This document shows, piece by piece, positions 330 to 54,805 of a stretch of 64,000 bases of DNA; positions within the stretch are counted from its first letter, which is position 1, and the number at the start of each line of letters is the position of its first letter. The position numbers were made by a program, and so were the translations under genes. The stretch is from NCBI GenBank assembly GCA_026770705.1, contig JANJGN010000189.1:744001-808000 (forward strand), in the 5' to 3' direction. The stretch is from Isurus oxyrinchus (Eukaryota). The notes below the pieces were generated by a model that was not told where the DNA came from, made no database searches, and saw nothing but the letters and a program-made list of their open reading frames with translations.

Positions 330-578
330 GGTAAACAGAACGTGCTGATTACTGAGGCCCGGAACACAACCAGAGACACAACTAGTGAGGGGGAGACCCC
401 AGCTCCCCGGGATCTCTCTGAAAGTCCAGTGGGAGGCGATGCTGGACATGGGAACGCCGAAAATCCCGCCGAGCTTCTCTACGCCAATCCCCAAGTTTTG
501 AGGGTTTCCAGTGGTGATGGGTCTGTCCACAGGGAAGAGGAGACGGAATACGCACAGATCAGGTTCGAGCATAACTGA
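330..578 (+). CDS. Siglec-like terminal cytoplasmic exon, copy 1 (degenerate ITIM LLYANP + ITSM-like TEYAQI); rest of gene upstream of window
   Basis: Acceptor ttctctgtag|, phase 0, GKQNVLITEA...ELLYANPQV...EETEYAQIRFEHN*; paralogous to 3215 and 18961 exons. Confidence 0.85.
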   Translation, partial: GKQNVLITEARNTTRDTTSEGETPAPRDLSESPVGGDAGHGNAENPAELLYANPQVLRVSSGDGSVHREEETEYAQIRFEHN

Positions 579-6735: not shown

Positions 6736-6819
6736 TCCAGCTGATCCTACTTGTTCTGTTCTTATATTCTTATACAGACACAGGGTTTACTGACAGTGCA
6801 CAGCAAAGTGCTGTTCTCT

Positions 6820-6977: not shown

Positions 6978-7421
6978 AACGGAACGATTGGAATTCACTT
7001 CCACCACCAACACCGTCCTTTGTTGATGTTGTGACTTTATAAAGACAGATTCCAATGATTGATGCCTTTGAAAGATTTCTACTGATTATTGAGATCTGGG
7101 TGTGAGGCTCAAGTCTGTTGTACAGAACATCTTTCTAGCTCAAGGGATGATGGAAGTGCAGGGACATGAGCTTTGGGACATCCTGAGGTGGTGAAAGGTG
7201 CTATAGAAATGCAAGTCCTTCATTGTTTTTCTTTCTGAAAGCCTTGTAATTCTCTGCAGAGCACCAATCATCCCACAGAGAATCAAATTTGTCTGTGAAG
7301 ATATTCTCTAAAAGCAGTTCTGATCTCTCGAGAGCATTCGGACAAGAGGTGAATTCTCATTAACTCCTTTCTCTTTCAGAACTTCAGAGTTAGAAGCTGA
7401 GGAAATATCTGGGAGTGGACA

Positions 7422-7461
7422 ATGATCGGTAAATCTTACTTCCTCCTGTCACTTCTTCAAG
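7422..7461 (+). CDS. Gene A leader exon MIGKSYFLLSLLQ (exon starts 7380)
   Basis: ctctttcag| acceptor, ATG 7422, hydrophobic stretch, phase-1 donor caag|gtaata. Confidence 0.85.
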
Positions 7462-10398
7462 GTAATACCATCGTCAGCTCGGACAGATTTATGGTTAATA
7501 GTCTTTGTAAAAGATCATTCTTATTGAGCTCTGATAGGGAACTGATTCCGCAGTGATCCAGTGTACAAACTCACACCAAGTCCCATTCACCCATCACCCC
7601 TGTGTTCACTGATATACACTGACTCCCTGTCTGACAGCAGAATTGGAGGAGACCAGAGGTCTTGGAGGGTTGTAGGGGCTGGATGAGTTTACAGGGATAG
7701 GCAGGTTTGTAGCAGTGAGAGCAGAATCTTAAAATTCAGCTGCTGTCGGATGTTGGTCAGTGAGCGAAGGGGATTGATGGGTTGAGTAGAGAAGCAGGGA
7801 TAAAAACTGATGGATGAAGCCTATCCTAATGTGAGGTCTCCGATAGCAATGCCCTGAAATTTGTGTCTTTTGCTGATTTTAGACAGAATTTCCCATGAAG
7901 ACAACACAGCAGCCCCTAGAATAGACAGGCTGTTCAGTGTCACACTTCCTGTCCATTCTCACCTTGCTAGATACTTCAATAAGGGAGCAAGATAACTGAA
8001 AGAGAGAACAAAGGCAAAACTGTCTGTGTGTAAAGGTGTCAAATATTCTGAGTTATCATGAGTGTCTCTGATCTGCTGCATAGTTTAAATTTCACAGAAT
8101 CTGAGCACTTTGCAGCTCAGAGAGAGACCATTGACTCACTGCCTGAAAGGGCGGTGGAAGCAGATTCAACAGGAACTTTCAGAAGGGGAACTGGATAAAT
8201 ACTTGAAGGGAAATTTGCAGGGCTGTGTGAAAGGTGCTGGAGAGGAATTGGGAAAGAGCCAGCACATGCACGATGGGTCACATGAGCTCCTCCTGTGTTG
8301 TATCATTCGACAATCAGACAATTTTAGATCCTTATCAACAAATCTTCAGAATCCTGCTGAATCACAGATATTTCAGAAGGACAGGGAACATGAGGTTTCT
8401 GGTATCAACGCTTCATGTGGGGCCCAGTTCAGTTTGAACAAAAAAAATGACAACAGCATCTTTGAAAGTCATGAAACCAACACAGCGGCACCTCCGACAC
8501 ATGCAGAGCTCAGGCTAGAGGCGCTTTGTTAGTGTGTTTCACAGGGTCTGCTGGAGTAGGGTCAGTGCTGAGCTTGGGGACAAGTCAGTCTACAATGCTG
8601 CATCGGAATCAACAATACAACAATATAGGGTTTGGATCAGAAATAATCCCTTAGACAATGAGGATCCGAAGAGATTCCTTAGACAATGAGAATCCAAAGA
8701 GATTCCTTACTCCATTGGTTGTCTAACTGGGGTCCATGATTTTCCAAGGGGTCCTTGGCAGAATCAAATTATCGAGCAATAGTGTGTAAAACACCGGAGA
8801 GAACGGGAAAGGTGGGATCAATGGAAAACTGTTCACTCTGTTTACACTAATGGGAGTTAGTCTCAGTAATGGAGACCATGAAACTATCATCGATTGTCAT
8901 ACACACCCATCTGGTTCACTAATGGCCTTTAGGGAAGGAAATCTGCCGTCTATATCTGGTCTGGCCTACATGTGACTCCAGACTCATAGCAACGTGGTTC
9001 CTCTGAAATGTCCGAGCAAACCATCCAGTTCTCACCATGCTAGAAACTTCAATAAGGGAGTAAGATAACTGAAAGAGAGAAGGAAGGTAAAGCTGCTCTT
9101 GTGGATAGATGTCAAATATCCTGAGTGATCATGATTGTCTCTACTCTGCTACAGAGATTATGTCACGGGACATTAGAGATGGGCAGCAAATGCTGGCCTT
9201 GGCAGCGACGCCCACATCCCATGAATGAATACATTTACAAAATCTTATTACTTGGAAGGTGCAAGTGCAGGTTGTTATGATCCTTGAGCAGACCCTCTCA
9301 GCACTGACCCTACTCCAGCAGACCCTGTGAAACACACTAACAAAGCGCCTCTCGCCTGAGCTCTGCATGTGTCGGAGGTGCCGCTGTGGTGGGTTCATGA
9401 CTTTCAAAGATGGTGTTGTTTATTTGTTCAAACTGAACTGGGCCCCACACAAAACGCTGATACCAGAAACTTCTTGTTCCCTGTCCTTCTGAAATATCCG
9501 TGACTTCAGCAGGATTCTGAAGAGTTGCTGATGGAGGAACAGGCACCCAATTTTTTTTGATAATTTACAGTTAGGAACCAATAATATTTTGTTTCAAGTA
9601 GACGAGGTTTGAGATTTAAGATGCTTGCAAAGAGAATAAAGCTACAAGATTCCATGGCTTTTAAACAAATAAAAATAAACTTTACTGCACCAGCTCAGAA
9701 AGATAAAATAATTCACAATATCCACCTTATACCCTAACATTCTGGATTAATATGAGCTCATGTGAATTAACAGGCAAACTGTGGTCTCACAGCCACATTA
9801 TTCATTAAATTGTAAACGCAACCAAGATAGTGCCCATGGATTTCACAACAACCCACCCGGACATCAGTGAACACTGTCAGTCAACCAATCTCACTGAAAC
9901 TCTGTTTCTCTCATGAGGGATTCCAATCTTCAACTTCGAAGATCTTGCCTTGGAATTCTCTCCAAAAGTCGCTTCAACTCGGATGGCCTCAGTGACGTTC
10001 CACCTCACAGGGTTTCCATCTCTTCTCCTGAGGCTCCATTGCCCTGGATTCCCGACAATATACTCAAGCACCTCTAGGATTAGATGAAAGGTTTTGATTG
10101 ACTGGGTAGACAGAGAATGTTCCCTCTTGTGGGCAGGAGAATAACTAGAGGCCGAGTGATTGGTGATTCCTTAAACATTGAAGAGGGAATGAACACCAAT
10201 CAGATTGAATCAGATTAGCCAATCAGCTGTGTTGAAGAGCAGACAAGAATGTTAGGCTAATTAGTGATTCATGACGGTGATAATGGGGGGAGTTCTGAGG
10301 GCTCCTAATCCATTGTCCTGTCTTGTAAATCTGCACTGAATGGATCTCAATTGGTGGGTCTTGTAGACACTGTGTTGGGTGGAAGACTGGCTTCACTA

Positions 10399-10672
10399 AG
10401 GGGAAGCGGTAGCAGAGAGGTATTGTCACTGGGCTCGTATTCCAGAGGCCCAGGGTGATGCTCTGGGGCCCTGGGTGTGAATCCTATCACAGCAGATGAA
10501 TGGGATTAAAAAGCCTGGTTCACTGATCACCTATAGGGAAGGAAATCTGCCACCCTTACCCAGTCTGGCCTACATGTCACTCCAAACCCACAGCAATGTG
10601 GTTGACTCTTAAATACCTCTGATGGACATGGGATGGGCAATAAATCCCATGAATGAATAATTTGAAAAAAAG
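10399..10672 (+). mobile_element. SINE insertion with A-rich tail
   Basis: Present in gene A intron, absent at the paralogous site in gene C (~49725); body shared with 34680-34960 and 58270-58590. Confidence 0.75.
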
Positions 10673-10893
10673 CTAAACAGGTTCCTGAGGACCATGAGCC
10701 AATGTAGAATGAACTTGTCCACTCCTGCGTCCAAGATTCTCTTCCATCCATTGTGAAACCTTGGGGAGTTCCTTGTGTGTCCTGTAGATGGTCCACACTG
10801 CAGCCAATGTGCCCCAGTGATGGAGGGGGTGGATATCAAGTCTAGTGGATCGAAAAAACATCCAGAGTTAAATATTGATATTTCTCTCCCCAG

Positions 10894-11259
10894 TTGGACT
10901 GTCACAAGAGTGGAAAGGTGACACTCCACGAGAGGTGACAGCGCAGGAAGGTTCCTGTGTACAGATTCCCTGTCATTACAGTTATCCATCACATTTGGAA
11001 AACCAACCACGAGTTGGAGTCTGGTTTAATAATGAGGAATGGAGAACATCGTCTATAGCCTTTCACTCCAAGGATCACAGTCACGAGTTACCACGGTTCC
11101 ACCATCGGACCCGGCTGTCTGGAGACCTGAAAGATGGTGACTGTTCTCTGATTATAAATAACATCAGACGGGAAGATGCGGGACCTTATTTTTTCAGAAT
11201 AGAATTTGACAGCAGGAATAGTTACAGCTACTATCCTGTAACCCAGCTTCACGTTTCTG
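10894..11259 (+). CDS. Gene A Siglec V-set exon with essential Arg
   Basis: 366 nt, phase 1/1; VTAQEGSCVQIPCHYSYP..W..RLSGDLKDGDCSLII...DAGPYFFRIE: Siglec Cys pattern (B-E disulfide, no F-strand Cys) and the YFFR arginine. Confidence 0.95.
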
Positions 11260-11735
11260 GTAAGTGCTGTGTTATAATTACTCAACAATTCACATTCAAC
11301 ACTCAATGGGAAATAACACAAACTGTGACGTTTACATATTAACACAAAACACAGGTTATTATAACACATTGTCTTCATTCTCAATAACCTGCTGATAGCT
11401 TCCAGTTCAGTCCTAAAGCAACCTCTAATAATTACTTTAATATCAATGATTAAAAGCATTAACTGTATTATCAGGTTATCCACTCCCATCAATCTCTCCT
11501 GTCCTGTTTAAAAGTCTGACGTATCGATAAAAGAAAGATGTGCATTTCTGCAGCGCAATTTACCACCTCAGGAGGATCCAAATCCCTTCACAGCCAATGA
11601 AATTATTCCTGAATTGTGGTCACAGATGTTAAACACAGCAGGCAGTTTGTGCACAGCAAGATCCAACAAACCACAAGGTGATAAATCACCCAGATCACTG
11701 AGGAAATGAGAAGCCAGTGAACTCAAACCTCTGGT

Positions 11736-11867
11736 CTGATGAAGAGTCATACGGACTCGAAACGTTAACCCTGTCTTCCTCTCCACTGATACTGTCAGAC
11801 CTGCTGAGTCTTTCCAGCAATTTTTGTTTTGGTTTCAGATTTCCAGCATCCGCAGTATTCTGCTTTT
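11736..11867 (+). mobile_element. Penelope-like terminal-repeat fragment with minimal hammerhead core
   Basis: ctgatga-a-gagtc-atacg-gactc-gaaa-cgtt; flanked by ~20-bp duplication (11720-11739 / 11868-11887); similar to the end of the Penelope at 46606-46715. Confidence 0.7.
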
Positions 11868-12119
11868 AACTCCAATCTCTGGTCTGAGCCTCTTCTCTCA
11901 TCCAGTATTCTCAATTCACATGTCTCGGAGTGAACGTGTATTAAGCTGAGAGACAGAAACACTACTGCCAAAGAGCAAGAAAATCTTTCCTGATCATTGT
12001 AACCTCTCAGTTCTGATATCATCCTTGTAAAAGTGCTTTCTCTTGTGGGACTGTGATTTCTATTTGAACTGATGCTTCACATTATATTTCTCTAAAAGGA
12101 TCCATTTTCTGTCTGTTAG

Positions 12120-30404: not shown

Positions 30405-30860
30405 ATTCCCCCACAAGGGGTAACATCCCCTCAGCATCCACCCTGTCAAACCACCCACCACCTCAGAATCTTATATGTTTCAATAAGATCACCTCTCATT
30501 CTTCTAAACTCCAATGGATACAGGGCCCAACCTGCTCAACATTTCCTCATAAGACAAACCCCCTTCATCCCAGGAATCAGCCCAGTGAACCTCCTCTGAA
30601 CTGCCTCCAATGCAGAGTCTATCCCTCCCTAAGTAAGGAGACCAGAACTGTACACACTGCTCCTGATACAATCTCACCAACGCCCTGTACAGTTGTAGCA
30701 AGACTTCCCTCCTTTTATACTCCATCCCTTTGCAATAAAGGCCAACATTCCACTTGCCTTCCTCATTCCGTGCTGTTCCTGAATGCTGACTTTCTGTGAT
30801 TCATGTACAAGGACACCCAGATCCCTCTGTGTCGCATTCTGTAGACTCTCTCCATTGAAG
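30405..30860 (-). mobile_element. CR1 LINE fragment
   Basis: MEYKRREVLLQLYRALVR..CVQFWSPY. Confidence 0.9.
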
Positions 30861-30908
30861 TAATATTCTGCTTTTTGATGTCCTGTCCCCTCCCTTGTTG
30901 CCTTTCAG

Positions 30909-31265
30909 GAGTGACGTCAGAGGGATGGTCTATGAAGGCACTGTCTCGGAGGGCCATCAGCAGCTCTTGTGTGGTTATTCCGTGTAGCTTTGACTTTCCT
31001 TCCCACTCTTACACAGCACTGCATGGAGCTTGGTATAAATATTGGTATAGATGGAAATATACCATCACATACACCAAAGATCCCAACTATGCGATGGCCA
31101 CATTCGTGGGACGTGCTAAAATAATCGGTGACTTGGAAGGGAAGAATTGTTCGGTGAGGATTGACAGTCTCAGAGCTGAAGACAGTGATGTGTATTACTT
31201 CTACGTGGATGCGGAGGGCTACACAGATCACACTTTTACACAACCAGTCCAACTCCAGGTTCTTG
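30909..31265 (+). CDS. Gene B MAG-like Siglec V-set exon, essential Arg replaced by Tyr
   Basis: 357 nt, phase 1/1; SCVVIPCSFDFP..LHGAWY..FVGRAKIIGDLEGKNCSV..YYFYVDAEGYTDHTF. Confidence 0.92.
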
Positions 31266-31397
31266 GTAAGTCCCAGTTCCTTTCACACTCAGTCTATCAG
31301 CACAAGGGGGTCATGTTCTCATCTCAGAGCCAGGCAGTCATGGGTTGAATTCCTGCTCCAGGAGATGTCAGAACAAAGTCCAGTATGTGATCTGGTG

Positions 31398-31816
31398 CAG
31401 TACTGAGGGAGTTCCACACTGTCAGAGGGTCAGTAATGAGGGAGTGCTGCACTGTCGGAGGGTCAGTACTGAGGGAGTGCTGCACTGTCAGAGGGTCAGT
31501 ACTGAGCGAGTGCCACACTGTCAGAGCATCAGTACTGCGGGAGTGCTGCACTGTCGGACGGTCAGTACTGAGGGAGTGCTACACTGTCGGAGGGTGAGTA
31601 CTGAGGGAGTGCTGCACTGTCACCGGGTCAGTACTGATGGAGTGCTGTACTGTCGGAGGGTCAGTACTGAGGGAGTGCTGCACTGTCGGAGGGTCAGTAC
31701 TGATGGAGTGCTGTACTGTCGGAGGGTCAGTACAGGGGGAGTTCTGCACTGTCGGAGGGTGAGTACCGAGGGGGTGCTGCACCTTTGGGGGGTCAGTATT
31801 GAGGGAGTGCTGCACC
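31398..31816. repeat. 33-bp minisatellite
   Basis: Tandem units. Confidence 0.95.
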
Positions 31817-31994
31817 ATTGGGGGGGTCTTTGCCGAGTGAGTGCTGCTCTGTCTGAGAATCATCACTTGTATCAAAACATTTTTAACTTTACTGTTGTTC
31901 CCACTTCAGCTGCAACTGCTCCACATCCCCATGTGTTAACTGGAGCATGTCAGCCTGGAGTTACGTGGAATTGCAGAGCAGAATCTGCTCTCAC

Positions 31995-33310
31995 ACATTG
32001 AAGCTGGCAATCGCTAAGTGTCCCTCAGTGATGATGTTTTCTGATGGAATGAAACTTGGCAAAGCCGTGGGTAGTGATAAGGAGAGATTGGGCATGAGAG
32101 GGGCAGGATCAGTGTGAGGTGGGCAGACACATGGCTGATGCAGTTCAGCGCAGTGTCGTGTGAAGTGACGCACTTTGTCAGGATGAATACAGACAGATAT
32201 TGGACAGTAATGATTTGGACAGGTGTAGGTGAGCAGAGACCTGGGCGTCTCTCTGCACTCATTCTGAAAGTTTAAAGGACAACTTGTTGAGGTGATGAAG
32301 AAAGAAAATGTCTTCCTTGTGTTAACAGACTGAGGAACCCAGTTAAAAGCAAAGAGATCATGCGGGAACTTTATAAATCACTGGTTAGAACTCAGCTGGA
32401 ATATTGTTCAGAACGCTGGGCCTCCACACTTCAGGAAAGATGTAAGAGCTTCAGAAAGGGTGTCCAAGAGGACAAAACTGTAAAAACTGGGACATAAGAG
32501 TCCTGCTCCAAACTGGTCTTGTATAGCTTAACATATAACAGTGGTAAAACTGGGAAATAAGAGTACTGGTCCAAACTGGTCTTGCATAGCTTAATATAGA
32601 ACACCAGTTAAACTGGGAAATAAGAGTACTGGTCCAAACTGGTCTTGTATAGAATAATATAGAACACCAGTGAAACTGCGAGATAAGAGTCCTGGTCCAA
32701 ACTGGTCTTGTATAGAATAATATAGAACACCAGTGAAACTGCGAGATAAGAGTCCTGGTCCAAACTGGTCTTGTATAGAATAATATAGAACACCAGTAAA
32801 ACTGCGAGATAAGAGTACTGATCTGAACTGATTTTTTGCTTCTGGGTGGAGAGGAGATTGAGCAGAATGGGTCCAGGGATGAGGGCTTTTAGCTACAAGG
32901 TTGGGTTGGAGGAGCTGGGGTTGTTCTCCTTGGAACAAAGGAGATTGAGGGGGGATCTGATCGAGGTGTACAAGATGATGATGGGTTTAGATAAGGTAGA
33001 CGAAGAGAAGATGTTGCCATTAGCTGATGGTACAAGGACCGGGGGACACAGATTGAAGGTTGTGGGTGGGGGGCGATGTGAGGAGGAACTTTTTTACACA
33101 GCGAGTGGTAATGAGCTGGAACTCGCTGCCTACGAGGATGGTGGAAGTGGAGACGATGAACAATTTCAAAAGGAAATTGGACGGACAATTGGAAATAAAC
33201 TCACAGGGATACGAGGACAGAGCGGGGGGAATGGGACTGATTGGATTGCTCTACAGAGAGACAGCATGAACTGGATGGGCCAATGGCCTCCTTCTGTGTT
33301 CTGAGTGTCT
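31995..33310 (+). mobile_element. Degraded CR1 LINE 3' part
   Basis: LYKSLVRTQLEYC; LGLFSLEQRRLRGDLIEVYK; FFTQRVV..WNSLP. Confidence 0.85.
32480..32825. repeat. 63-bp tandem repeat (~5.5 copies) inside LINE
   Basis: aaactggtcttgtatagaataatatagaacaccagtgaaactgcgagataagagtcctggtcc. Confidence 0.9.
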
Positions 33311-33389
33311 GTGACCCTATTGAAAAATCAGAGGACAAATACAAATTGTTTTCTGCTTGTCAGTTAACATCTGGAACTTTCTATTACAG

Positions 33390-33677
33390 ATGCTCCAGAT
33401 AAGCCAGTTATTGTGCTCCTGAAGGATTTACAGGAGGGGACTCCTGCACATATCATCTGTAAATGCCTCTACACCTGCCCTGATAACCACCCCAATCTAA
33501 CCTGGAGTGAATTGCTGACTTCATCGGTCAGCAACATTACAGAGAACGGTGGTGAGGTTTCCGCTCTACTGACCTTTAACCCTTCGTTCAAGCATCATGG
33601 ACGAACTCTCCGCTGTACGTGCGACTACCCTCAAACCAGCCATCGAGTGGTCAGCTCCGTTACTCTGAGTGTAAAGT
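33390..33677 (+). CDS. Gene B Siglec domain-2 exon
   Basis: 288 nt, phase 1/1; DAPDKPVI..ICKCLYTCPDNHPNLTW..LTFNPSFKHHGRTLRCTCDYP. Confidence 0.92.
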
Positions 33678-34185
33678 GTAAGTATTGATTAGAACATCAT
33701 GCTTGTGATGGAGGGGGAGTCGGTCTCCTATTAAATCAGGCATTGGAGAAGGCGCAAGTTGGATTGACAAGGATGATTCCAGAACTGAGAGGTTATAACT
33801 ATCAGGAAAGACTGAACAAGCTGGGATTCTTTTCTCTAGAAAAGAGAAGGCTGAGGGGGTGACCTCATCGAGGTCCTTAAAATGGTGAAAGGGTTTCGAT
33901 AGGGTAGATGTAGAGAAGATGTTTCCACTTGTCGGAGTGACGAAGAGTTAGGGGCCATCAATATAAGATCATCACTAATAAAATGGTGCACACTGCTAAC
34001 AATGTGCGTTCATGGTGGAGGGAGTGAATGTTGAAGATGGTGGGTGGGATGCCAATCAATCGGGCTGCTTTGTCCTGGATGGTGTCGAGCTTCTTGAGTG
34101 TTGTTGGAGCCGCACTCATCCCGGCAACTGGAGAGAATTCCATCACACTCAGTGTTTAATGTGTTGATAATTTTGTATTTGAAAG

Positions 34186-34443
34186 ATTCTCCTCACAACA
34201 CGTCTGTCAGGATGATACTGGAAAAAGGAAAGGTGATTTCTCTAAGTTGTTCCAGTGACGGGAATCCAGCAGTCCACAATTTCACCTGGTTTAAGATCTC
34301 CCAAGGAAAGGTGATGAATCTCGCGCTCGCTGGTCAAACTATTACAGTTCCTTATGGATTCGATGAGGAAATCTCCTACTACTGTGAAGCAACAAGTATC
34401 CTGGGCAGTTCCCAGTCTCTGCCCATTAGAATTCCCACTGAAT
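34186..34443 (+). CDS. Gene B C2-set exon (CD22-like)
   Basis: 258 nt, phase 1/1; YSPHNTSV..SLSCSSDGNPAVHNFTWFK..YYCEATSILGSSQS. Confidence 0.9.
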
Positions 34444-35039
34444 GTGAGTAATTTCAATCCTGACTTTTAAACAATTCCACATCTTGTCCAAACTCCGAGG
34501 TGAACCAAATCTCCCCTTGGGTGTTGCTGAAAACATGCTGTCGAAGGTTTCAATCCTCGTCAGGACAGAGTCACGAGAAAACCCAATCTCAAAGGGAACA
34601 GCCATTTCTGATGCGGGGGAAGAGGGCGTGCTGATTGGCTGGCAAGTCGACATTTCTCCACAGTTTGTTCACAATTCTCAGTGATGGTCACCATGAAACT
34701 ACCAGATTGTTGTAAAAACCCATCTGGGCCAGTAATCTCCTTTAGGGAGGGAATTCTGCCATCCTTACCCGGTCTGGCCTACATGTGACTCCTGACCCAC
34801 AGCCATGTGGGGGAATCTTAACTGCCCCTCTGAATGGGCCGGGCATGCCACTCAGTTGTATTCGAGCGGGCGGCTCACCACCGCCTTCTCAAGGGGCAAC
34901 TAGGGATGGGCAATAAACGCTGGCCCTGCCAGTGATGCCCACATTACTGAATGAATTCCAATAGAAGAGGAATCCTCCCATTCTAGAGATTGGCGATCCA
35001 TACACTGGGCTGACATTCCCAGTCATTCAATAATCAGCC

Positions 35040-35789: not shown

Positions 35790-38104
35790 TATTAATGGGT
35801 GGTTTTCCTCTGAACTGTATCTCAGAATAAATGATCCCCTGGAAAACAGTGACCATAACCTGGTACAATTCAGCATTCCCTCTGAGACTGAGAAACTTGG
35901 GTCGGAAACAACTGTGCTGGACTTAAATAAGTGTAATTACAAAGGAATAAGGACAGGGTTGTCTGGAGTGGACTGGGAAAGGGGTTTAGCAGAAAAGATG
36001 CTGGATGAACAATGGCAGATCTTTAAGAAAATATCTCATGACTCACAACAAAGATATATCCTGGTGAGGAAGAAGGATTGTAGGAAGAGAATAAACCAAC
36101 CTGGGTTACCCAAAGAAGTTAAGGCGTGTGTCAAATTGAAAGAGAAACCATGCAATATGGTTAGTGGTAAGCCAGAGGATTGGGAACGTTTTAAAAACCA
36201 ACAGAAGATGACCAAAAAATAAATAAAGAGGCAGAAAACTATGTAAACTAGCAAATTATAAAAAAAGGACAGTAAAAGCTTCTTTAAATATATAAAAAGG
36301 GAGAGAGAGACCAAAGTGAACATAGGCCCCTGAGAGAACTAGGCTGGGGAAATAATAATGAGGAGCCAGGAAATGACAGAGGAGTTGAATAAATACTTTG
36401 CATCAGTCTTCACGGTAGAACACACTAATAGCATTCCAAAAATACTAAATAATCAAGGGGCAAAAGGGGGGTGGGGGGAGGAAATAAATACAGTAACTAT
36501 CACTAGAGAATAATACTAGGGAAAGTCATGGGTCTCAAGGCTGATAGGTCCCCTGGACCTGATAGGTTGCATCTTAGGATATTAAAGGAAGTAGATGCAG
36601 AGATAGTGGATGCACTGGTTTTAATCTTCCAAGAATCCTTAGATTCTGGGAAACTCCCAGAGGATTGGAAATCTGCCAAAGTAACACCCATATTCAAAAA
36701 GGGAGGGAGACAACAAACAGGTAACTATAGGCCAGTTAGCTTAACATCTGTCATTGGGAACATGTTAGAGTCCATTATAAAGGATGTAATAGCAGACTAT
36801 TTAGAAATGCATAATTTAATCACACACAGGCTTCATGAAGGGGAAATCATGCATGACAAATTTATTAGAATTCCTTGAGGAGATAACAAACAGGATAGAT
36901 AAAGGGGAACCAGTAGATGTAATATATTTGGATTTCCAAAAGTTGTTCAGTAAATTACCACATATAAGGCTACTTAATAAGATAAGAGCCCATGGTGTTG
37001 GGGGCAGTATATTAGCATGGATAGAGGATCGACTAACTAAGAGAAGACAGAGATTTGAGATAAGGGGGGCATTTTCAGGATGTCAACCTGTGGAGTGCCA
37101 CAGGGATCAGTGCTGGGGCCACAATTATTTACAATATATATTAATGACTTGGATGAGGGAAATTAATGTACTTTCGCCAAGTTTGCGGATGACACAAAAA
37201 TAGATGGGAAGGCAAGTGGTGAGGGTGACACGAAGAGTCTACAGAGGGACATAGACAGGTTCAGTGAGTGGACATCAACTTGGCAGATGGAATATAATGT
37301 GGGAAAATGTGAGCTGCTGCACTGTGGCAGGATGTATAGAGGAGCTGAATATTATTTCAATGGAGAAAGACATTGGAAAGGTGAAGCATATTGGAATTTG
37401 GGGGTCATCAGAAAGATAACTTACAAGTTCAACAGTTAATAGGGAAGGCAGGTGGAATGTTGGCCTTTATTTCAAAGGGAATGGAGTATAAAAATAGGGA
37501 AGTCTTGCTAAAACTATACAAGGCACTAGTTAGACCACACCTAGAATACTGTGAGCAGTTTTGGTTCCCTTATCTAAGGAAAGATGTACTGGCATTGGAG
37601 GCAGTCCAGAGAAGGTTCACTAGGTTGATCCCAGTAATGGAGGGATTTTCATATGAGGAGAGGTTGAGTAGGATGGGCCTGTACTCATTGGAGTTTAGGA
37701 GAATGAGAGGTGACCTTATTGAAACATATAAGATTCTTAGGGTGCTTGACAGGGTAGATGCTGAGAGGTTGTTTCCCCTTGTGGGAGAGTCTAGGACCAG
37801 AGGGCATAATCTCAGAGTAAGGGGTCACCCATTTAAGACAGAGATGAGGAGTTTCTTCTCTCAGAGGGTAGTGAATGTGTGGAATTCTTTACTGCAGAGA
37901 GCTGCAGAGGCTGGGTCATTAATTATATTCAAGGCTGAGATACACAGTTTTTTAATCAGTCAGGGAATCAAAGGCTATGGGGAAGAGGCAGGAAAGTGGA
38001 GTTGAGGATTGTCAGATCAGCCATGGTGTCATTGAATGGCGGAGCAGAGTTGATTGGTCGAATGGCCTCCTTCTGCTCTGACGTCTTGTGGTCTTATGGT
38101 CTTA
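35790..38104 (+). mobile_element. CR1 LINE ORF2 (5'-truncated, frameshifted)
   Basis: SDHN, SPGPD, NYRPVSLTS, YLDFQK, KFADDTK, LVRPHLEYC and tail ttatggtcttat. Confidence 0.97.
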
Positions 38105-38105
38105 T

Positions 38106-38996
38106 CACCCTCCAACAGTGCAGATCTCCCTAATTACTGATCCTCCAACAGTGCAGCACTCCCTCAGTACTGACCCTCCGACAGTGCAGCACTCCCTCAG
38201 TACTGACCCTGCAACAGTGCAGCACTCTTCCAGCACTGACCCTCCGACAATGCAGCACTTCCTCAGTAATGACCCTCCGACAGAGCAGCACTCCCTCAGT
38301 ACTGAACATCTGACAGTGCAGCAATCTTCCAATCCTGACCCTCCGACAGTGCAGCATTCTTCCAGTACTGACCCTCCGACAGTGCAGCATTCCCTCAGTA
38401 CTGACCCTCCGACAGTGCATCACTCCCTCAGTACTGACCATCCAACAGTGCAGCACTCCTTCAGTACTGACCATCTGACAGTGCAGCACTCCCTCAGTAC
38501 TGACCATCCAACAGTGCTGCACTCCCTCAGTACTGACCCTCTGACAGTGCAGTACTCTCTCAGTACTGACCCTCTGACAGTGCAGCACTCCCTCAGTACT
38601 GACCCTCTGACAATGCAGCACTCTCTCAGTACTGATCCTCCGACATTGCAGCACTCCCTCAGTACTGACCATCCAACAGTGCAGCACTCCATCAGTACTG
38701 AACCTCCAACAGTGCAGCACTCCCTCAGTACTGACCATCCAACAGTGCAGCACTCCCTCAGTACTGACCATCCAACAGTGCAGCACTCCCTCAGTACTGA
38801 CCCTCCGACAGTGCCGCACTCCCTCAGTACTGACCATCCAACTGTGCAGCACTCCCTCAGTACTCATTCTCCGACAGTGAAGTACTCGCTCAATACTGAC
38901 TATGCGGCAGTGCAGCTTTCACAGTACCCACCCTCCAACAGTGCAGCACTCCCTCAGTACTGACCCTCTGACAGTACAGCACTCCCTCAGTACTGA
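38106..38996. repeat. 33-bp minisatellite (~27 units)
   Basis: Tandem units; source of the 291-aa spurious ORF. Confidence 0.95.
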
Positions 38997-41436: not shown

Positions 41437-41533
41437 GGCGAGATTCCAATGAATGGAAAGCAGGATTGCTTGGAGCTGGAATCTGTTTGAGTGTTGGACT
41501 GAGTGGATTCTTCATCTTCAAGTGTGTGAGAAA
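41437..41533 (+). CDS. Gene B transmembrane exon (phase 1 to 2)
   Basis: ttttacag| ... aa|gtaagt; RRDSNEWK-AGLLGAGICLSVGLSGFFIF-KCVR: 20-aa uncharged span followed by basic residues. Confidence 0.85.
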
Positions 41534-41984
41534 GTAAGTGTGAAGGTTTAATTGGTTGTTTTCAAAAATGTTTTCTTCAACCTTCTCTCCTTATAGAAAG
41601 AACTTGCATTTCTATAGCACCTTTTACAATCCAAAACCCTTCACAGCCCCTGAAGAGTTTTGATGTTCACCTACTGTTTAACATCTCATCCAACACTCAC
41701 TGTTTCACAACTCAGTCCTGTAACTGGCAGGGTTGACCCGGACCATAAGATACCTTGTGACCTCCTGAGTTTGTGAAAGGTGCGATATAAATGAAAACCT
41801 TTCTTTTGTTAGTGAATACAATCTCTTTCCTTTTTCCATGTTTCATTCACTCTCTCTTACCTCCACTAATGCTCTCCTTCTCATTCTCTCTCTCATTCAC
41901 TCTCTCTCCAATCTCCACTAATGCTCTCCTTCTCATTCTTTCTCTCGTCCTCTTACACGTTGTTCAGTCTCTCACATTTTTAAG

Positions 41985-42045
41985 GAGCGCTGAGCTACAT
42001 CTGCTCCTTCAGAAGATCCACCTCAACACCTGGATTGAGCAGTGA
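41985..42045 (+). CDS. Candidate short terminal exon KSAELHLLLQKIHLNTWIEQ*
   Basis: Long pyrimidine tract then tttttaag|; open in phase 2; no homology support. Confidence 0.3.
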
Positions 42046-42169
42046 ATTGAAACTCGCTCAACGACTGCTCAGCTTTACACAGGAATCACGTCACAGAGTC
42101 AGGACACAAAGGGTTAACAGTTTGTTAACAACACAACACTAAGGCCCTACGTTTCAATGAAAGGGTTTT

Positions 42170-42487
42170 CACAATTGTTCCCCAATTCCTGATTTGACTC
42201 ACAGAGACACATCAACCCTTTCTAATTAAACACACAGAGGGAGCAGCACAGGAAGAGGTCATTCAGCCCAAGCAGAGCGTGTGGGCAGTTCCTCCCCAGG
42301 CGAGCAGTCGGACAGGTACTGGGTAAGTAACGGAACGATTGGAATTCACTTCCACCACCAACACCGTCCTTTGTTGATGTTGTGACTTTATAAAGACAGA
42401 TTCCAATGATTGATGCCTTTGAAAGATTTCTACTGATTATTGAGATCTGGGTGTGAGGCTCAAGTCTGTTGTACAGAACATCTTTCT
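42170..42487 (+). promoter_or_regulatory. Orphan copy of gene A promoter/exon 1 (exon ends 42322)
   Basis: Near-identical to 6820-7137. Confidence 0.7.
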
Positions 42488-42833
42488 GGTTAAATTATGC
42501 AGACAGGTTACACACAGTCTACGATTATATTCACTCGGGTCTAGAAGATTTAGGAGGGATCTAATTGAGGGGTTCAAACTGATTAAACACTCGATAGGGT
42601 CGATAGAGAGAAGCTATTCCCTCGGGTGGGGGTGGGTGGTGGGGGTCGGGTGGAGTCCAGAACAAGGGGGCTGGAACTTCAGATTGGAGCCAGGCCGTTC
42701 AGGGGTGATGTCAGGAAGCACTTCTTCACACAAAGGGGAGTGGAAATCTGGAACTCTCTCCCCAATAATCAAACCCAACACCGAATACACATCATGTTGA
42801 TTGTCATTCTGTCCATTTACATCTCTATTTCGG

Positions 42834-42920
42834 AAGAGAGGTGAGGGGAAAGCAGGAATCAAATCGAACCACCGTGTTGATGAATATCGAGGTCATGTTT
42901 ATGAAAACTGTGAGCGTGGT
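42834..42920 (+). pseudogene. Degenerate cytoplasmic exon KRGEGKAGIKSNHRVDEYRGHVYENCE
   Basis: Aligns with the 44724 exon (KSN...YxNC); acceptor cag>cgg; 3' end runs into LINE sequence. Confidence 0.55.
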
Positions 42921-43073
42921 TGGGCTTTGAGGAATCAGGTGAGTCACACACCACAGGATCCCCAGCCTCTCAGCTGCTCCAGTAGCCTGGTTATTGATAT
43001 GGCTGCTCCAGTCCTGTATCTGCAATGTTTTATACAGTCACTCCCAAACCCAACCAAACTCACACCCAACACC

Positions 43074-44625
43074 ATTCAGAATCAATAATCAAACCCCGAT
43101 CAGAATCAATAATCAAACCCCGTTCAGAATCAATAATCAAACCCCGTTCAGAATCAATAATCACACCCCGTTCAGAATCAATAATCAAACCCCGTTCAGT
43201 ATCAATAACCAAACTCCGTTCAGTAACAATAATAAAACCCGTTCAGAATCAATAATCAAACCCCGATCAGTATCAATAATCAAACCCCGTTCAGAATTAA
43301 TAATCAAACCCCTTTCAGAATCAATAATCAATCCCCGTTCAGTATCAATAAACAAACCCCGTTCAGTATCAATAATCAAACCCTGTTCAGAATTAATAAT
43401 CAAACCCCTTTCAGAATCAATAATCAATCCCCGTTCAGTATCAATAAACAAACCCAGTTCAGAATTAATAATCAAACCCCGTTCAGAATCAATAATCAAA
43501 CCGCGTACAGAATCAATAATCAATCCCCGTTCAGTATACATAATCAAACCCCGTTCAGTATCAATAAACCAACCCCGTTTAGTATCAATAATCAAACCCC
43601 TTTCAGAATCAATAATCAATCCCCGTTCAGTATCAATAAACAAACCCCGTTCAGAATTAATAATCAAACCCCGCTCAGTATCAATAATCAAACCGCGTTC
43701 AGAATCAATAATCAAACCCCGTTCAGTATACATAATCAAACCCCGTTCAGTATCAATAATCCAACCCCGTTTAGTATCAATAATCAAACCCCATTCAGAA
43801 TCAATAATCAAACCCCTTTCAGAATCAATAATCAAAACCCAGTTCAGAATCAAGAATCAAACACCGTTCAGTATCAATAATCAAACCCCGTTCAGAATCA
43901 ATAATCAAACACTGTTCAGAATCAATAATCAAACCCCATTCAGTATCAATAATCAAACTCCGTTCAGGATCAATAATCAAACACCGTTCAGAATCAATAA
44001 TCAAACCCCGTTCAATATCAATAATCAAACCCCGTTCAATATCAATAATCTAACTTCGTTCAGGATCAATAATCAAACCCCGTTCAGATTCAATAATCAA
44101 AACCCTTTCAGAATCAATAATCAAACCCCATTCAGTATCAATAATCAAACCCCGTTCAGTATCAATAATCAAACCCTGTTCAGAATTAAAAATCAAACCT
44201 GTTCAGTATCAATAATCTAATCCCGTTCAGAATCAATAATCAAACCCCGTTCAGAATTAAAAATCAAACCCCGTTCAGTATCAATAATCTAACCCCGTTC
44301 AGTATTAAAAATCAAACCCCGTTCAGTATCAATAATCTAACCCCGTTCAGTATCAATAATCAAACCCCATTCAGTATCAATAATCAAACCCCGTTCAGAA
44401 TCAATAATCAAACCCTGTTCAGTATCAATAATCAAACTACGTTCAGGATCAATAATCAAACTCCGTTCAGATTCAATAATCAAAACCCATTCAGAATAAA
44501 TAATCAAACCCTTTTCATTATCAATAATCAAACCCCGTTCAGAATTAAAAATCAAACCCCGTTCAGAATCAATAATCAAACATCGTTCAGGATCAATAAT
44601 CAAACCCCGTTCAGTATCAATAATT
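43074..44625. repeat. 24-bp satellite (tcagaatcaataatcaaaccccgt)n, ~64 units
   Basis: Direct tandem units; 8-aa periodic ORFs. Confidence 0.97.
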
Positions 44626-44723
44626 AACGTATCTATTGTGGATGGAATTTTTTGATTTGGATCAATGATACTAAACACTGATCACTCTGATTTTCACTCT
44701 GATCATTTCTGTTTCTATTACAG

Positions 44724-44840
44724 AAGAAAGATGAGAAGGATCTGGAAATGAAATCTAACCGCGGAGTCAATCCTGATACAGATGATGATCTTTACGCAAA
44801 CTGTGATTTTGCCAAGGATTCTGTTTATGGGAATTTATAA
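44724..44840 (+). CDS. Terminal cytoplasmic exon KKDEKDLEMKSNRGVNPDTDDDLYANCDFAKDSVYGNL*
   Basis: ctattacag| acceptor; phase-0 frame has acidic DLYANC and ITIM-like SVYGNL. Confidence 0.7.
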   Translation, partial: KKDEKDLEMKSNRGVNPDTDDDLYANCDFAKDSVYGNL

Positions 44841-47949: not shown

Positions 47950-48180
47950 CACTTGGTACCAAGCACTTCCTCATTTTGACTCACAGTGACACATCCACCC
48001 TTTTTAATTAAACACAAATAGGGAGCAGCACAGGAAGAGGTCATTCAGCCCAAGCAGAGCGTGTGGGCAGTTCCTCCCCAGGCGAGCAGTCGGACAGGTC
48101 CGGGGTAAGTAACGGAATGATTGGAAATCACGGGGGGAGTTCTGAGGGCTCCTAATCCATTGTCCTGTCTTGTAAATCAG
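47950..48180 (+). pseudogene. Third promoter/exon-1 copy fused to intron sequence matching 10286-10335
   Basis: Exon ends 48104; the leader exon region is deleted. Confidence 0.65.
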
Positions 48181-48599
48181 CACCTTAATACTGACCCTTC
48201 AACAGTGCGGCACTCCCTCAGTACTGATCCTCCAACATTGCAGCACTCCCTGATTAATGTCCCTCTGACAGTGCAGCACTCCCTCAGTACTCACCCTCAA
48301 ACAGTGGAGATCTCCCTCAGTACTGACCTTACAATAGTGCAGTAATGACCATCCGACAGTGCAGCACTCCCTCAGGACTGACACTGGGCAGTTTCAGTCT
48401 ACTCTGTGGGGCAGACGTCCCCTGAATGGGGTCTTGAATCCCACAACATTCTGACCCCCTGAATTTGGCTGTGAAACCCACTAACCCACAGGAGAAACTC
48501 CTGGTCAATGACTGTCCACCTGTGAGCAGAAATATCACCACAGGGTCAGGACACAAAGGGTTAACAGTTCACCAACATCTCAAAACATGAGCTGGTCTG

Positions 48600-48758
48600 T
48601 CACTTTGATCCAACTTCCTCATTTTGACTCACAGAGACACATCAACCCTTTCTCATTAAATACACAGAGGGAGCAGCACAGGAAGAGGTCATTCAGCCCA
48701 AGCAGAGCGTGTGGGCAGTTCCTCCCCAGGCGAGCAGTCGGACAGGTCCTGGGTAAGT
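48600..48758 (+). promoter_or_regulatory. Gene C promoter/non-coding exon 1 (ends 48752)
   Basis: Near-identical to 6820-6977. Confidence 0.65.
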
Positions 48759-49180
48759 AACGGAACGATTGGAATTCACTTCCACCACCAACACCGTCCT
48801 TTGTTGATGTTGTGACTTTATAAAGACAGATTCCAATGACTGATGCCTTTGAAAGATTTCTACTGATTATTGAGATCTGGGTGTGAGGCTCAAGTCTGTT
48901 GTACAGAACATCTTTCTAGCTCAAGGGATGAGGGAAGTGCAGAGACATGAGCTTTGGGATGCCCTGAGGTGGTGAAAGGTGCTATAGAAATGCAAATCCT
49001 TCATTGTTTGTCTTTCTTAAAGCCTTGTAACTCTCTGCAGAGCACCTATCATCCCACAGAGAATCAAATTAGTCTGTGAAGACATTGTCTAAAAGCAGTT
49101 CTGATCTCTCGAAAGGTGCTGGACAAGAGGTGAGGTCTCATTAACTCCTTTCTCTTTCACAGCTTGAGAGTGAGAAGTGG

Positions 49181-49241
49181 ATGGAATATCTGGGAGTGGA
49201 CAATGATCGGGAAATCTACTTCCTCTTGTCACTTCTCCAAG
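49181..49241 (+). pseudogene. Gene C leader exon; 1-nt deletion after the ancestral ATG (49203), in-frame upstream ATG at 49181
   Basis: tcttac>tctac relative to gene A; MEYLGVDNDREIYFLLSLLQ. Confidence 0.75.
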
Positions 49242-49944: not shown

Positions 49945-50318
49945 TTGGACAGTCACAAGAGTGGAAAGGTGACACTCCACGAGAGGTGACAGCACAGGAA
50001 GGTTCATGTGTACAGATTCCATGTCATTACAGTTACTTATCAAATTTCGTAGGGAGATCACGTGCAGAATCTGGTTGAAAGGAATAGATGGGAACCCACA
50101 GCCTAAATGGTCTATAGCCTTTCACTCCGAGGGTCACAATCACAGGGATCAAAGATTCCGCCATCGTACCCAGCTGTCTGGAGACCTGAAAGATGGCGAC
50201 TGTTCCCTGATTATAAACAACATCAGACGGGAAGATGCAGGACCTTATTTTTTCAGAATAGAGTTTGACAGCAGGAATTGTTACAGCTACTATCCTGTAA
50301 CCCAGCTTCACGTTTCTG
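49945..50318 (+). pseudogene. Gene C V-set exon with 1-nt frameshift near 50067
   Basis: 374 nt; paralog of 10894-11259; YFFR arginine retained. Confidence 0.9.
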
Positions 50319-50841: not shown

Positions 50842-50994
50842 GACATCTGAATGTCCAAATGAACAGAACAAGTTCCAACAATGAGCTGTGGTTGCTGATT
50901 CCTCACGTTACATCCAGGGACACTGGCGACTATCAGTGTGTGGCAGAGAATGAACATGGAGCAGTGGAGGGGTTCATAACCATCACTGTGGAAT
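50842..50994 (+). pseudogene. Gene C 3' half of a C2 repeat exon
   Basis: MNRTSSNNELWLLIPHVTSRDTGDYQC..ITVE|gtgagt; 5' half replaced by unrelated sequence; domain-2 exon absent. Confidence 0.85.
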
Positions 50995-52657
50995 GTGAGT
51001 GTACACAGACTTCAACATCTCTCTCAGATTCGAATACTACACAAACACCCTCAAACGTACAGACCTAAATAGACACGTGCAGACACACATATATGACCAC
51101 ACACAAAGACACACTCACAAACAAACACACTAGCACAAGACTCCCTCATGGGTTACCTGACCTCCCTCAGTACTGCACTGGAGCGTGGGCTGAATTCTGG
51201 GATTTGTGTTCCCATTCATATTTATAGAAGAATATGGAAATTACTCATACAAACACTCAGATGCATAGAGGCACTCATAGATACTCTCTGCTTCTCCAAC
51301 TCTCTCTCTCCCTTTAAGGAGCTACCTGAAACCTAACCCGTTGACGAAGAACTAGTCCCAACTCCTCTTTATCTGATTCTGTGATTTTTTTGTGAATCTG
51401 AGAGTAAGAGAGAGTTGGAGAGGTTTAGTAAGAGAATTCCTGCTGATGAAAAGCTTACATCCTGTTCTCACTATTTCCGTGCCCATTATGTCCAAAGCCC
51501 CTGTTTATAGTGATGACTGCCTATGTAAACGTCACGCTGTAGTTACAGTCTCCCACCAGTGGTGGCATTGTAGCACTTAATCCTTGTGTTTCCCAGCTTT
51601 TCAAGCAAATCTACTTCCCAGTTTGCTACACAAGCTGTGAGTTCATCGGAATTCAATTATTTCTCAAACGGTAGATTTGATAATTCATTTTATTGAAAAC
51701 TTCCTCAGTGCCTCCCTGAAGGGTTCACACTCTCTGGGAAGCAGGAATAGGCTGGATGTTGGGGAGTTCATCTTTTCCCAGAGAGTAGGGATCCTCGGGA
51801 ATGTGCTGTCAGTGGGTGTGGTGGTTGCTGTCTCTCTGTCACCTTCAAGAGGGATCTGGAGTGGTTACTGACTGGGGGAGAGATCATGGAAGCGGAGAAT
51901 GATACAGCACAGGAGGAGGCCATTCAGCCCATTGAGACTGTGCCAGGTCTTTCAATGTTCTATCCAATCAGATCCACTAACCACCACTCCACTTTGCCCC
52001 CATCTTCCTCCTTCAAGTGTTTATCCAATTTCCCTTTTGAAAGTTCCTATTGAATCTGCTTCCGCTGCCCTTTCAGGCAGCACCTTCCAGATCACAACAA
52101 CTCGCTCTGTCAAAACAAATTCTCCTCATCTCCCCCTCCGGTTCGTCAATCTGTGTCCCTCTGGTTACCGACCCTCCTGCCCCTTAAATACATCGATACT
52201 GTTCACATCAACCACTCCCTGTGGGATCGAGTTCCACATTCTCCCCTCTCTCTGGGTAAAGATTGGAACTGTTTATTAAGCGGGGGGTGTAAGTCCGTGG
52301 GGGAGTTCATCTCGATCCTCCCTGATTCGCACACACGTCCGAGATGGATTTCAACCCTGCACTAAACGTTTCCAGAATTTTCTACAGCACAATCCTGTAC
52401 ACATTGATGGAGAGAAACATTGGACAGGGAGTCCAACAGCACAATGATCCATTCTCACCAATGTTCCACGCTAAGGGGAAAGTTCCGATTGTCCACTCTT
52501 AGAGTGTTTACAATGAAAACATTCATTCCACATTGAATCCCAGTGGATGGGTCAATATTACAGCAAATGTTGCAGTGATATGAAGCTTGATTGTTCAGCC
52601 AGAGTGAGAGATTGAAAGCGGAGAGTCAGTGATGATTTCTTTCTGTGTGTTCTCTAG

Positions 52658-52796
52658 ACAGTGGAGGAGAGATTCTGCACGTGATCCTGATCCTGGGAAT
52701 ACGAGCTGTGATATTCCTTTGGCTGTGGTTATCACTATCGCTGGAGTCTGTGTCTGGGAGAGACAAACAGTGAAAGGAAGTCGACAGACTGTTTGA
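52658..52796 (+). pseudogene. Gene C TM exon with intramembrane Arg and short tail (activating type)
   Basis: ttctctag|, phase 1: SGGEILHVILILGIRAVIFL then WLWLSLSLESVSGRDKQ* as read, or LAVVITIAGVCVWERQTVKGSRQTV* with one T restored. Confidence 0.7.
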
Positions 52797-52924
52797 AGCT
52801 TTGTACAGCAACAATCTGGTCAGTCAGTGCGGACAAATAACGTGTGATGTTGGGTTAAGTGTAATGAAACAGGTCAGTGTCCTGGTTAGAATCACCTTCG
52901 TATCAGAGAGGCATTCCAGGACAG

Positions 52925-53500
52925 TGGGAGACCATTCAGCCCATTGAGTCCATGTTGTCTCTCTGTAGAGCAATCCACTCAGTCCCATTCCCCCGCTCTA
53001 TCCCCGTATCCCTGCAAGTTTATTTCCCCTCAAGTGTCCATCCAATTTCTTTTTGAAATTGTTCATCGTCTCCGCTTCCACCATCCTCGTAGGCAGCGAG
53101 TTCCAGCTCATTACCACTCGCTGTGTAAAAAAGTTCCTCCTCACATCCCCCCTCTGCCCAAAATCTTCAATCTGTGTCCCCCAGTCCTTGTACCATCAGC
53201 TAATGGCAACAGCTTCTCTTTGTCTACCTGATCTAAACCCATCATCATCTTGTACACCTCGATCAGATCCCCCCTCAATCTCCTTTGCTCCAAGGAGTAC
53301 AACCCCAGCTTCTCCAACCCAACCTTGTAGCTAAAATCCCTCATCCCTGGACCCATTCTGCTCAATCTCCTCCCCACCCTCTCAAGGACCCTCACTTCCT
53401 TCCCAAAATGAGGAGACCAGAACTGGACACAATGCTCTAGCTGTGACCTAACCAGAGCTTTATAAATGTTCAGCATAACCTCCCTGTGTTTGTACTCAAT
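52925..53500 (-). mobile_element. CR1 LINE 3' fragment
   Basis: YKALVRSQLEHCVQFWSP..RRLRGDLIEVYK. Confidence 0.9.
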
Positions 53501-54220
53501 CCTTCGATTTATGAAAAGCTTATTCTTTCCATCAGCACAAACAGCAATTTCCAAGCGGACTCCCATCAGCAGACAGAGTGCAATGAAACATCGGCATGCC
53601 TGCTTCTTAATGTACGGAGAGAAACCTGGAACAAGAGATTCTCCTTCTTCTCCTCAGCAAGCTGAAACTTCTCCTTATACCTGGTGCTCCCCAGTCCTGC
53701 TGTGTGGACACATCATAACCACGGCATTGTCTGGCTGTGTGCAGCCAACATGGTCGAATAGGAATGAACAGAAATGTGCCGTTGCTAAACTCTGTTCTCT
53801 GATTGGAATGTGCTTTCTGAATGCTGCACCTTTTTCATGCTGCGATAGATTGTAAGAAGCATTTGGCTTATGAATAAAATTACATTGATTAACACAAGTG
53901 ATTAAAATGTTCAGGCTGTTCTGTAGATATTTAAAGATTAAAATTCTTGTTTTGCTGCAAAATTCTTGGCTCAAAGACATTACTTCATGTTGTCACATTT
54001 TCCAATCAGATGAATTCCTCTGTCCATCTTTATAATAGAAATTTCCAATGTAAACATGTCACATTGTAGCTGCACAAACTTGCCAGTGGCTGGTGTGATA
54101 TCAAAGCAGTCAGCTGTCGAGAAACAGCGAGAAATATTCCTGTTGTGTGCATGAACTTCATGTTAGCATGAGACACAGGCATCAGATGCAATTTTGTGCA
54201 ATTTGTACAATGTTCTTTAG

Positions 54221-54805
54221 ACAGCGCAGCACTCCCTCAGTACTGACCCTCCAACAGCGCAGCACTCCCTCAGATTAGACCCTCCTACAGTGCAGCAGTC
54301 CTTCAGATCAGACCCTCCGACAATGCAGCACTCCCTCAGTTCAAACCCTCCGACAGTGCAGCACTCCCTCAGTTCAGACCCTCCGACTGTGCAGCACTCC
54401 CTCAGTCCAAACCCTCAGACAGTGCAGCACTCCCTCAGTTCAGAACCTCCGACAGTGCAGCACTCTCTCAGTTCAGACCCTCCATCAGTGCAGCACTCCC
54501 TCATTTCAGACCCTCCAACAGTGCAGCACTCCCTCAGTTCAGACCCTCCGACAGTGCAGCACTCCTTCAGTTCAAACCCTCCGACAGTGCAGCACTCCCT
54601 CAGTTCAAACCCTCCGACAGTGCAGCACTCCCTCATTTCAGAGCCTCCGACAGTGCAGCACTCCCTCAGTTCAGAGCCTCCGACAGTGCAGCACTCCCTC
54701 AGTTCAGACCCTCCGACAGTGCAGCACTCCCTCAGTTCAGACCCTCTGACAGTGCAGCACTCCCTCAGGACTGAACCTCCGACAGTGCCGCACTACCTCA
54801 GTACT
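54221..54805. repeat. 33-bp minisatellite variant (ttcagaccc)
   Basis: Locally homogenised variant of the same unit. Confidence 0.95.

Follow-up and report, generated by a model that had tools for sequence, protein, structure and literature searches.

The window, the whole 64,000-nucleotide stretch of Isurus oxyrinchus DNA analysed here, carries members of a Siglec-like receptor family whose genes have three kinds of signalling end: an uncharged transmembrane (TM) segment with an ITIM/ITSM-like tail, a second uncharged TM with a YxN tail, and a TM containing an arginine with a short tail. The two types without this Arg have no basic residue in the TM core and carry Tyr in their tails. At the start of the window, an ITIM/ITSM-like tail exon (330..578, forward strand, with a duplicate at 3215–3463) belongs to an inhibitory gene whose two V exons and TM exon lie 2–10 kb before the window start. 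An inhibitory-type neighbour (7422..19209, forward strand) consists of a leader (7422–7461), a V exon (10894–11259), a second Ig exon (12120–12416), five C2 exons and an ITIM exon (18961–19209); no TM or first tail exon was found in its readable sequence, and positions 18053–18234 are N. This neighbour is possibly a deletion pseudogene or a secreted form, and locus L066 on contig C52 likewise has an ITIM exon without a TM. The YxN type of end occupies 41437..44840 (forward strand), with its uncharged TM exon at 41437–41533 followed by tail exons with YxN motifs. The gene under study comprises a leader exon (49181..49241), a Siglec-type V-set exon of 374 nt (49945..50318), the 3′ half of a C2 exon (50842..50998) and a TM-Arg exon (52658..52818), all on the forward strand. 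It is broken at several points upstream of the TM: the usual ATG of the leader (49203) is in a different frame from the donor, the in-frame ATG being one farther 5′ at 49181; the V exon has a frameshift near 50065, and its F-strand Arg codon is present and out of frame; the second Ig exon, which lies 5′ of the C2 remnant in intact copies, is missing. The remnant itself, which lacks an acceptor, is found in most activating copies.

Divergent V, C and C exons at 30845–34448 (about 32% to the main Siglec-like V) lie upstream of main-family C2 exons and the TM of the YxN type; four partial copies of this unit occur in a contiguous 600 kb tile of the array, and it may represent a chimeric gene or a second subfamily. 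In the YxN type, the first tail exon (42182–42330) is homologous, at 94–96%, to a block that many genes carry 5′ of their leader exon, with examples in the window at 6810–6979, 47965–48112 and 48591–48760; one sequence may double as a 5′ UTR exon and a tail exon. In many inhibitory genes the tail unit (short exon plus ITIM exon) is doubled or tripled in tandem, as at 330–578 and 3215–3463 and in the C52 tile; the membrane-proximal Tyr motifs vary among the repeated units, which could yield alternative tails. Minisatellites with 24-bp and 33-bp units are intronic and intergenic (43066–44627, 54217–54805 and 38104–38996).

The TM-Arg exon begins at a phase-1 acceptor (ttctctag/AC at 52656–52659, with a pyrimidine tract before the AG at 52656–52657). 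In the copy as assembled, the frame from 52660 reads SGGEILHVILILGIRAVIFL and then WLWLSLSLESVSGRDKQ up to a stop at 52771–52773. The TM Arg codon, CGA, lies at 52702–52704, and the rest of the TM helix with a 12-residue Tyr-free tail falls in the neighbouring frame, which ends at the intact-frame stop (52794–52796). The best 19-residue Kyte-Doolittle mean is 2.44 in the window copy as assembled and 2.95 in intact copies, so the segment is hydrophobic whether or not the frame is restored, as the sequence-only reading had held; its intramembrane Arg and short Tyr-free tail are likewise borne out. The exon ends at a donor GT (52819–52820), where an intron within the 3′ UTR (52819..53535, forward strand, GT/AG) starts 22 nt past the intact stop; a contig of run X17 joins 52818 directly to 53536, and an interspersed repeat (52921–53379) lies inside the intron. 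The last 3′ UTR exon and its flank (53536..54095, forward strand) contain an AATAAA signal at 53873–53878. The block shared with the ITIM genes, which the same reading had reported, was found again at 53681–54095: this segment matches 4108–4528 at 72.8%, and 53733–53898 matches 19235–19403 at 78.7%. The part common to activating and ITIM genes is 3′ UTR only. A decayed ITIM exon as the source of the 3′ UTR exon was rejected on alignment scores (22 and 18, against shuffled means of 21 and 20), and so was a derivation of the TM-Arg exon from the other TM exons of the family (24 and 20, against 19.4 and 19.5).

One G is missing after position 52719. It is present in all 19 other paralogous loci examined, each with an unbroken TM, and the window copy is the single instance of the deletion in the assembly. 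The 1-nt deletion that had been suspected in a T run is therefore there in the assembly, the lost base being this G rather than a T of the run. There is a considerable chance, somewhat below even, that the loss is an assembly error and that the TM exon is intact in the animal, in a gene still broken upstream. The contigs of the three covering DNA runs (X1, X4 and X6) and of four out of four RNA-type runs carry the G form alone, which favours an error; contigs drop rare variants, however, 34 pieces were unseen and the runs perhaps come from other individuals, and another copy, locus L034, has a private frameshift of its own.

The identity of the ectodomain was examined with the intact V exon at 10894. 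Its best PDB matches were Siglec-5, CD33 and MAG (E 2e-15 to 4e-14; bit scores of 60, 57 and 56), with Siglec-8 and sialoadhesin also matched and Siglec-15 weaker (E 2e-8). Pfam V-set and Ig_CD22 both scored above cut-off, and the second Ig exon matched C2-set_2 (E 4e-9). The B-strand and E-strand cysteines align with those of Siglec-5, as does the essential F-strand Arg, which a motif match placed in 57 of 66 intact V exons (seven have another residue and two were unparsed). These results indicate that the V domains are of Siglec type. Among 116 relatives, every named protein is that of a shark or ray, with lamniform sharks supplying the closest (93%); such proteins are already in public annotation under automatic Siglec-like names. 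Seven of the 116 have an Arg TM, and none of these seven is from a ray.

The results of an exact search for a 28-mer over the Arg codon showed 212 matches in the 4.98 Gb assembly and none for the reversed control; synonymous Arg codons (CGC, CGG and CGT) and copies with altered flanks are outside this count. Five further copies have Gln at the position, and no copy has a changed first base. The inhibitory TM exon gave 185 exact matches and the ITIM-tail exon, often doubled in tandem, 250. The arrays are multi-megabase: one 4.17 Mb scaffold holds 64 Arg and 57 inhibitory TM matches, and a contiguous 600 kb contains 11 TM-Arg, 11 inhibitory and three YxN-type TM exons with 31 V exons, intermixed on both strands. 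Four pairs among 32 loci are 99.6–99.9% alike over 9.9 kb, and the count may include alleles or false duplications; the exact-match totals are therefore upper bounds on the haploid number, with diverged copies missed. Word depth over the exon in the X1 contigs (4200–4600, against 9–13 in rare-variant contigs) fits a high copy number, though it is not a copy-number measure. One ITIM-tail match (C2:177209372) falls on a chromosome-scale contig, away from the unplaced scaffolds that hold the array, and may be an orphan copy or point to where the array resides.

An intact activating gene runs from a leader through one to three V-set exons and a second Ig exon, usually with the half C2 remnant, to the Arg exon. 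In contigs from three of four runs of presumed RNA nature, the second Ig exon runs directly into the Arg exon at its acceptor, the contigs not naming the transcribed copy. Models were made for 46 activating genes, and 18 of these are free of lesions. In a sample drawn irrespective of likeness to the window (the 11 in the 600 kb tile plus the first 20 in the C52 listing), 12 of 31 genes are intact and 19 broken, and a leader lies within range in three of the 12. Scored on ectodomain and TM, 8 of the 11 inhibitory genes in the tile are intact, a difference from the activating genes that is not significant (Fisher p 0.08). Four activating loci (L024, L035, L085 and L086) have three tandem V exons, some mutually identical. 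At L081, L082, L083 and position 1144719 of the C52 tile, a near-identical lineage, no Ig exon was found to separate the leader from the TM-Arg exon downstream of it.

Activating and ITIM genes appear to draw on one pool of V exons, as paired receptors do. On a tree of the 66 intact V exons (broken ones excluded, bootstrap incompletely settled), the activating label changes 18 times, against 21.0 for shuffled labels, and 52 of 500 shuffles were as low; well-supported branches force at least six of the label changes, and one activating/inhibitory V pair is 0.0055 changes per site apart. The activating genes show what marks the activating member of a receptor pair: a basic TM residue, a short tail without a Tyr motif, and a V domain in common with an ITIM partner. 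The V exons encode 62 distinct proteins (pN 0.096, pS 0.145), which vary mainly from the BC loop to C-C′ and in the F-G stretch, and the second Ig exon (0.017 and 0.025) and TM exon (0.011 and 0.004) are near uniform. No pN/pS excess indicative of positive selection on V was found (0.66) in a pairwise test, which is a blunt one. Nucleotide diversity of the TM-Arg exon is 0.012, and it is 0.010 and 0.012 in the adjacent 200 nt of intron. Because the exon surpasses this intron sequence in no way in conservation, the uniformity of the Arg within the genome (212 of 217 copies) reflects recent amplification and not selection on the Arg.

Comparison between species gave a different kind of evidence. 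A search of 1.84 billion representative proteins with the 45-residue exon product returned ten matches, one of them a repeat-derived chance match. The others include Siglec-like proteins (Scyliorhinus, Chiloscyllium), CD22-like C2 arrays (Chiloscyllium, Hemiscyllium), a single-V protein (Rhincodon) and two SLAM-type proteins, both partial predictions (Scyliorhinus torazame and Mustelus asterias). A word-indexed search for longer proteins with an Arg TM found none among 17 candidates, though such proteins exist, and is uninformative. In the alignment of genera from three shark orders (Carcharodon, Scyliorhinus, Mustelus, Chiloscyllium, Hemiscyllium and Rhincodon), the Arg and the motif LGIRA are invariant in 12 of 12 rows at 54–96% identity, and the neighbouring residues vary. 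The sequence-only reading had tied its activating-type terminal exon, a partner of the ITIM genes, to splicing at this acceptor in paralogs and to conservation of the Arg. Both were found, in the junctions of the RNA-type runs and in the retention of the Arg across the genome and the aligned proteins.

The same exon also occurs in Isurus outside the Siglec-like array. On the chromosome-scale contig C21, a SLAM-type C2 exon is followed by the TM-Arg exon, and the segment of the window before its own exon (52362..52657, forward strand) has its homologue in the intron that precedes the TM exon in this SLAM-family gene. Exon and about 300 bp of upstream intron align between the window and C21 at 67.5% over 434 bp (blastn E 1e-31; local score 252, shuffled maximum 33). 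The other Siglec exon queries gave no match within 80 kb on C21, and the intact V exon of the neighbouring C21 paralog matches SLAMF6 and SLAMF5, with no significant match to a Siglec V. In the C21 Arg gene, a stop interrupts the V exon and the TM has acquired polar substitutions. From this homology we infer that the TM-Arg exon and its intron form an activating cassette shuffled between unrelated Ig receptor families. The C21 genes lie in a small SLAM-family cluster (C21:89407742-89456025, L180–L185), where one V-C2 gene is open and one with a stopped V ends in TM-Arg, possibly a SLAM pair. Further SLAM/CD2-like C2 exons on small contigs (C795, C962, C87, C133, C219, C225 and others) suggest another expanded Ig family.

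Known receptor systems share some of these properties. Siglec-15, present from fish to mammals, resembles the shark proteins in having a V domain, one further Ig domain and a basic residue in the TM; it is not known to form an expanded array. Its TM residue is Lys, which binds DAP10/12 (PMC7226832), whereas that of the shark is Arg. The primate pairs Siglec-5/14 and Siglec-11/16 are like the shark genes in that a Siglec-type V domain is common to ITIM and short-tailed partners, that the TM residue is basic and that the partner ectodomains are homogenised (PMC13358205, PMC4042635). Unlike these pairs, the shark genes carry one to three tandem V exons, and the gene in the window is a multi-copy pseudogene rather than a null allele; in scale, two human pairs among about 15 Siglecs stand against more than 400 TM exons in the shark. 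The chicken CHIR genes likewise form a massive array of activating, inhibitory and pseudogene members grown by block duplication, with 103 loci and 41 pseudogenes (PMC1458963). CHIR are LRC-type C2 receptors, whereas the shark genes are Siglec-like, and by exon count the shark array is about four times larger, a ratio subject to haplotype redundancy. In macaques, the Arg TM region of KIR2DL4 was recombined onto KIR3D to give an FcR-gamma-coupled receptor (PMC8102735). That exchange took place within one family, whereas the shark cassette is found across Siglec-like, CD22-like C2-array and SLAM-family genes on different chromosomes.

We consider it quite probable that the window holds a frameshifted copy of the Arg TM exon that ends more than 200 Siglec-like genes, intact copies of which are likely to be activating receptors that signal via an ITAM adaptor. 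Such adaptors are recruited by receptors that combine a basic TM residue and a short tail (PMC13358205), and the shark Arg would pair with the aspartates of an adaptor dimer, FcR-gamma being likelier than DAP12. Early in galeomorph sharks, the cassette would have passed from one Ig receptor family to another, unrelated one, and segmental duplication with V-exon swapping would then have amplified it. Many activating copies would decay, as 19 of the 31 sampled have, the gene in the window among them, and the intact members may act against pathogens that use sialic acid to engage the inhibitory ones.

For the adaptor itself, FcR-gamma or CD3-zeta is the rather probable choice. FcR-gamma-like and CD3-zeta-like TM exons with Asp are present in the genome by Pfam match; we take these names from that match and from sequence features. 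Two FcR-gamma-like TM exons on small contigs, L068 (C1723) and L069 (C1648), encode identical products with flanks about 92% alike and are duplicate or haplotype copies. A predicted complex between the intact TM peptide and a pair of FcR-gamma-like TM exon products scored 0.14 (mark 0.34) and is evidence in neither direction. In type I receptors, an Arg near the N-terminal end of the helix goes with FcR-gamma and a central Lys with DAP12, whose partners have their basic residue at position 7–12 (PMC1440944); macaque Arg-KIRs couple to FcR-gamma and not DAP12 (PMC8102735). Coupling to DAP12 or DAP10, as in mammalian activating Siglecs, seems distinctly less probable. It has the precedent of Siglec-14, -15 and -16, which couple to DAP12 (PMC13358205, PMC4042635; for human Siglec-14, PMC4042635), and the Arg at position 7–8 of the best hydrophobic segment falls inside the 7–12 range. 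The type I Arg receptors and macaque KIRs speak for FcR-gamma instead, and if a helix of 21–23 residues ends at Trp33, the Arg (residue 15) moves to position 3–5, in the N-terminal quarter. A genome search for the DAP10 family gave 16 weak matches, none convincing (best E 0.41), from which absence is not implied.

That there is no adaptor at all has a small chance. Similarly unlikely is a non-signalling Arg that snorkels at the edge of the membrane or serves in protein retention, in which case the short-tailed products would be decoys or adhesion molecules that were copied along with the array. The lack of visible purifying selection within the genome, the 19 broken copies among 31 and the five copies with Gln are in keeping with it, but LGIRA is invariant over three shark orders and unrelated ectodomains while its neighbours change, and the other two TM types, with their Tyr tails, have no basic residue in the core. 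An Arg that recruits an ITAM adaptor remains our preferred reading.

The gene in the window has its own history within this array. Its V length class and second-Ig loss recur at seven loci on five contigs (the window, C121, three on C52, C646 and C557). Since the V frameshift and second-Ig loss are common to these seven paralogous loci, the gene would belong to an amplified pseudogene lineage that was dead before its private 1-nt loss; the G would have been lost later than the upstream lesions, unless the loss is an assembly error. The C121 copy matches at 97.6% over 8.6 kb and shares the upstream lesions, its TM exon being intact; it was rejected as an allelic haplotype, the different gene order marking it as a paralog. 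The sequence-only reading had seen here the activating partner, disabled on one haplotype as in the SIGLEC14/16 null alleles, and had proposed a search for intact alleles; the closest copy checked, C121, is not an allele, and there are more than 200 such exons, with the upstream lesions shared by six other loci. A single partner gene with a segregating null allele like SIGLEC14 or SIGLEC16 is very unlikely and already largely refuted: the G deletion is seen once in the assembly and large immune arrays usually differ between haplotypes, but the V frameshift and second-Ig loss stand at seven paralogous loci on five contigs and are not confined to one allele of a functional locus, the C121 paralog is broken alike with its TM exon intact, and 12 of 31 sampled activating genes are intact. 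A SIGLEC14-type null allele is a fusion-deletion polymorphism at one locus (PMC4042635), and the comparison fits ill because the gene in the window is part of a multi-copy pseudogene lineage. As one dead array member, this copy is of little import alone.

A search of the full-text literature, covering few subscription papers and no supplements (e.g. whale shark gene-family tables, which may list such genes), found no paper on shark paired Siglecs, the array or the shared exon. The relevant passages of a whale shark paper mention Siglecs once (PMC8455134), and those of PMC7226832 describe fish as without CD33-related Siglecs, sharks being unmentioned there. The finding is the array and the cross-family cassette, of which the copy in the window is an ordinary dead member. 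The broader proposal is evenly poised: that galeomorph sharks have a transferable activation cassette on Siglec-like, CD22-like and SLAM-family receptors, and that the lineage of this shark has amplified it into an array of several hundred paired genes with shuffled tandem V heads, which would be the largest Siglec repertoire so far, FcR-gamma-signalling and arisen apart from the mammalian CD33-related expansion. New adaptor coupling has been explained by independent point mutations (PMC1440944); in contrast to that account, one activating exon common at the DNA level to unrelated families would be a direct case of cross-family shuffling of a signalling module. Hundreds of paired Siglec-like genes in a shark would mean that the arms race between inhibitory and activating Siglecs predates mammals or arose twice.
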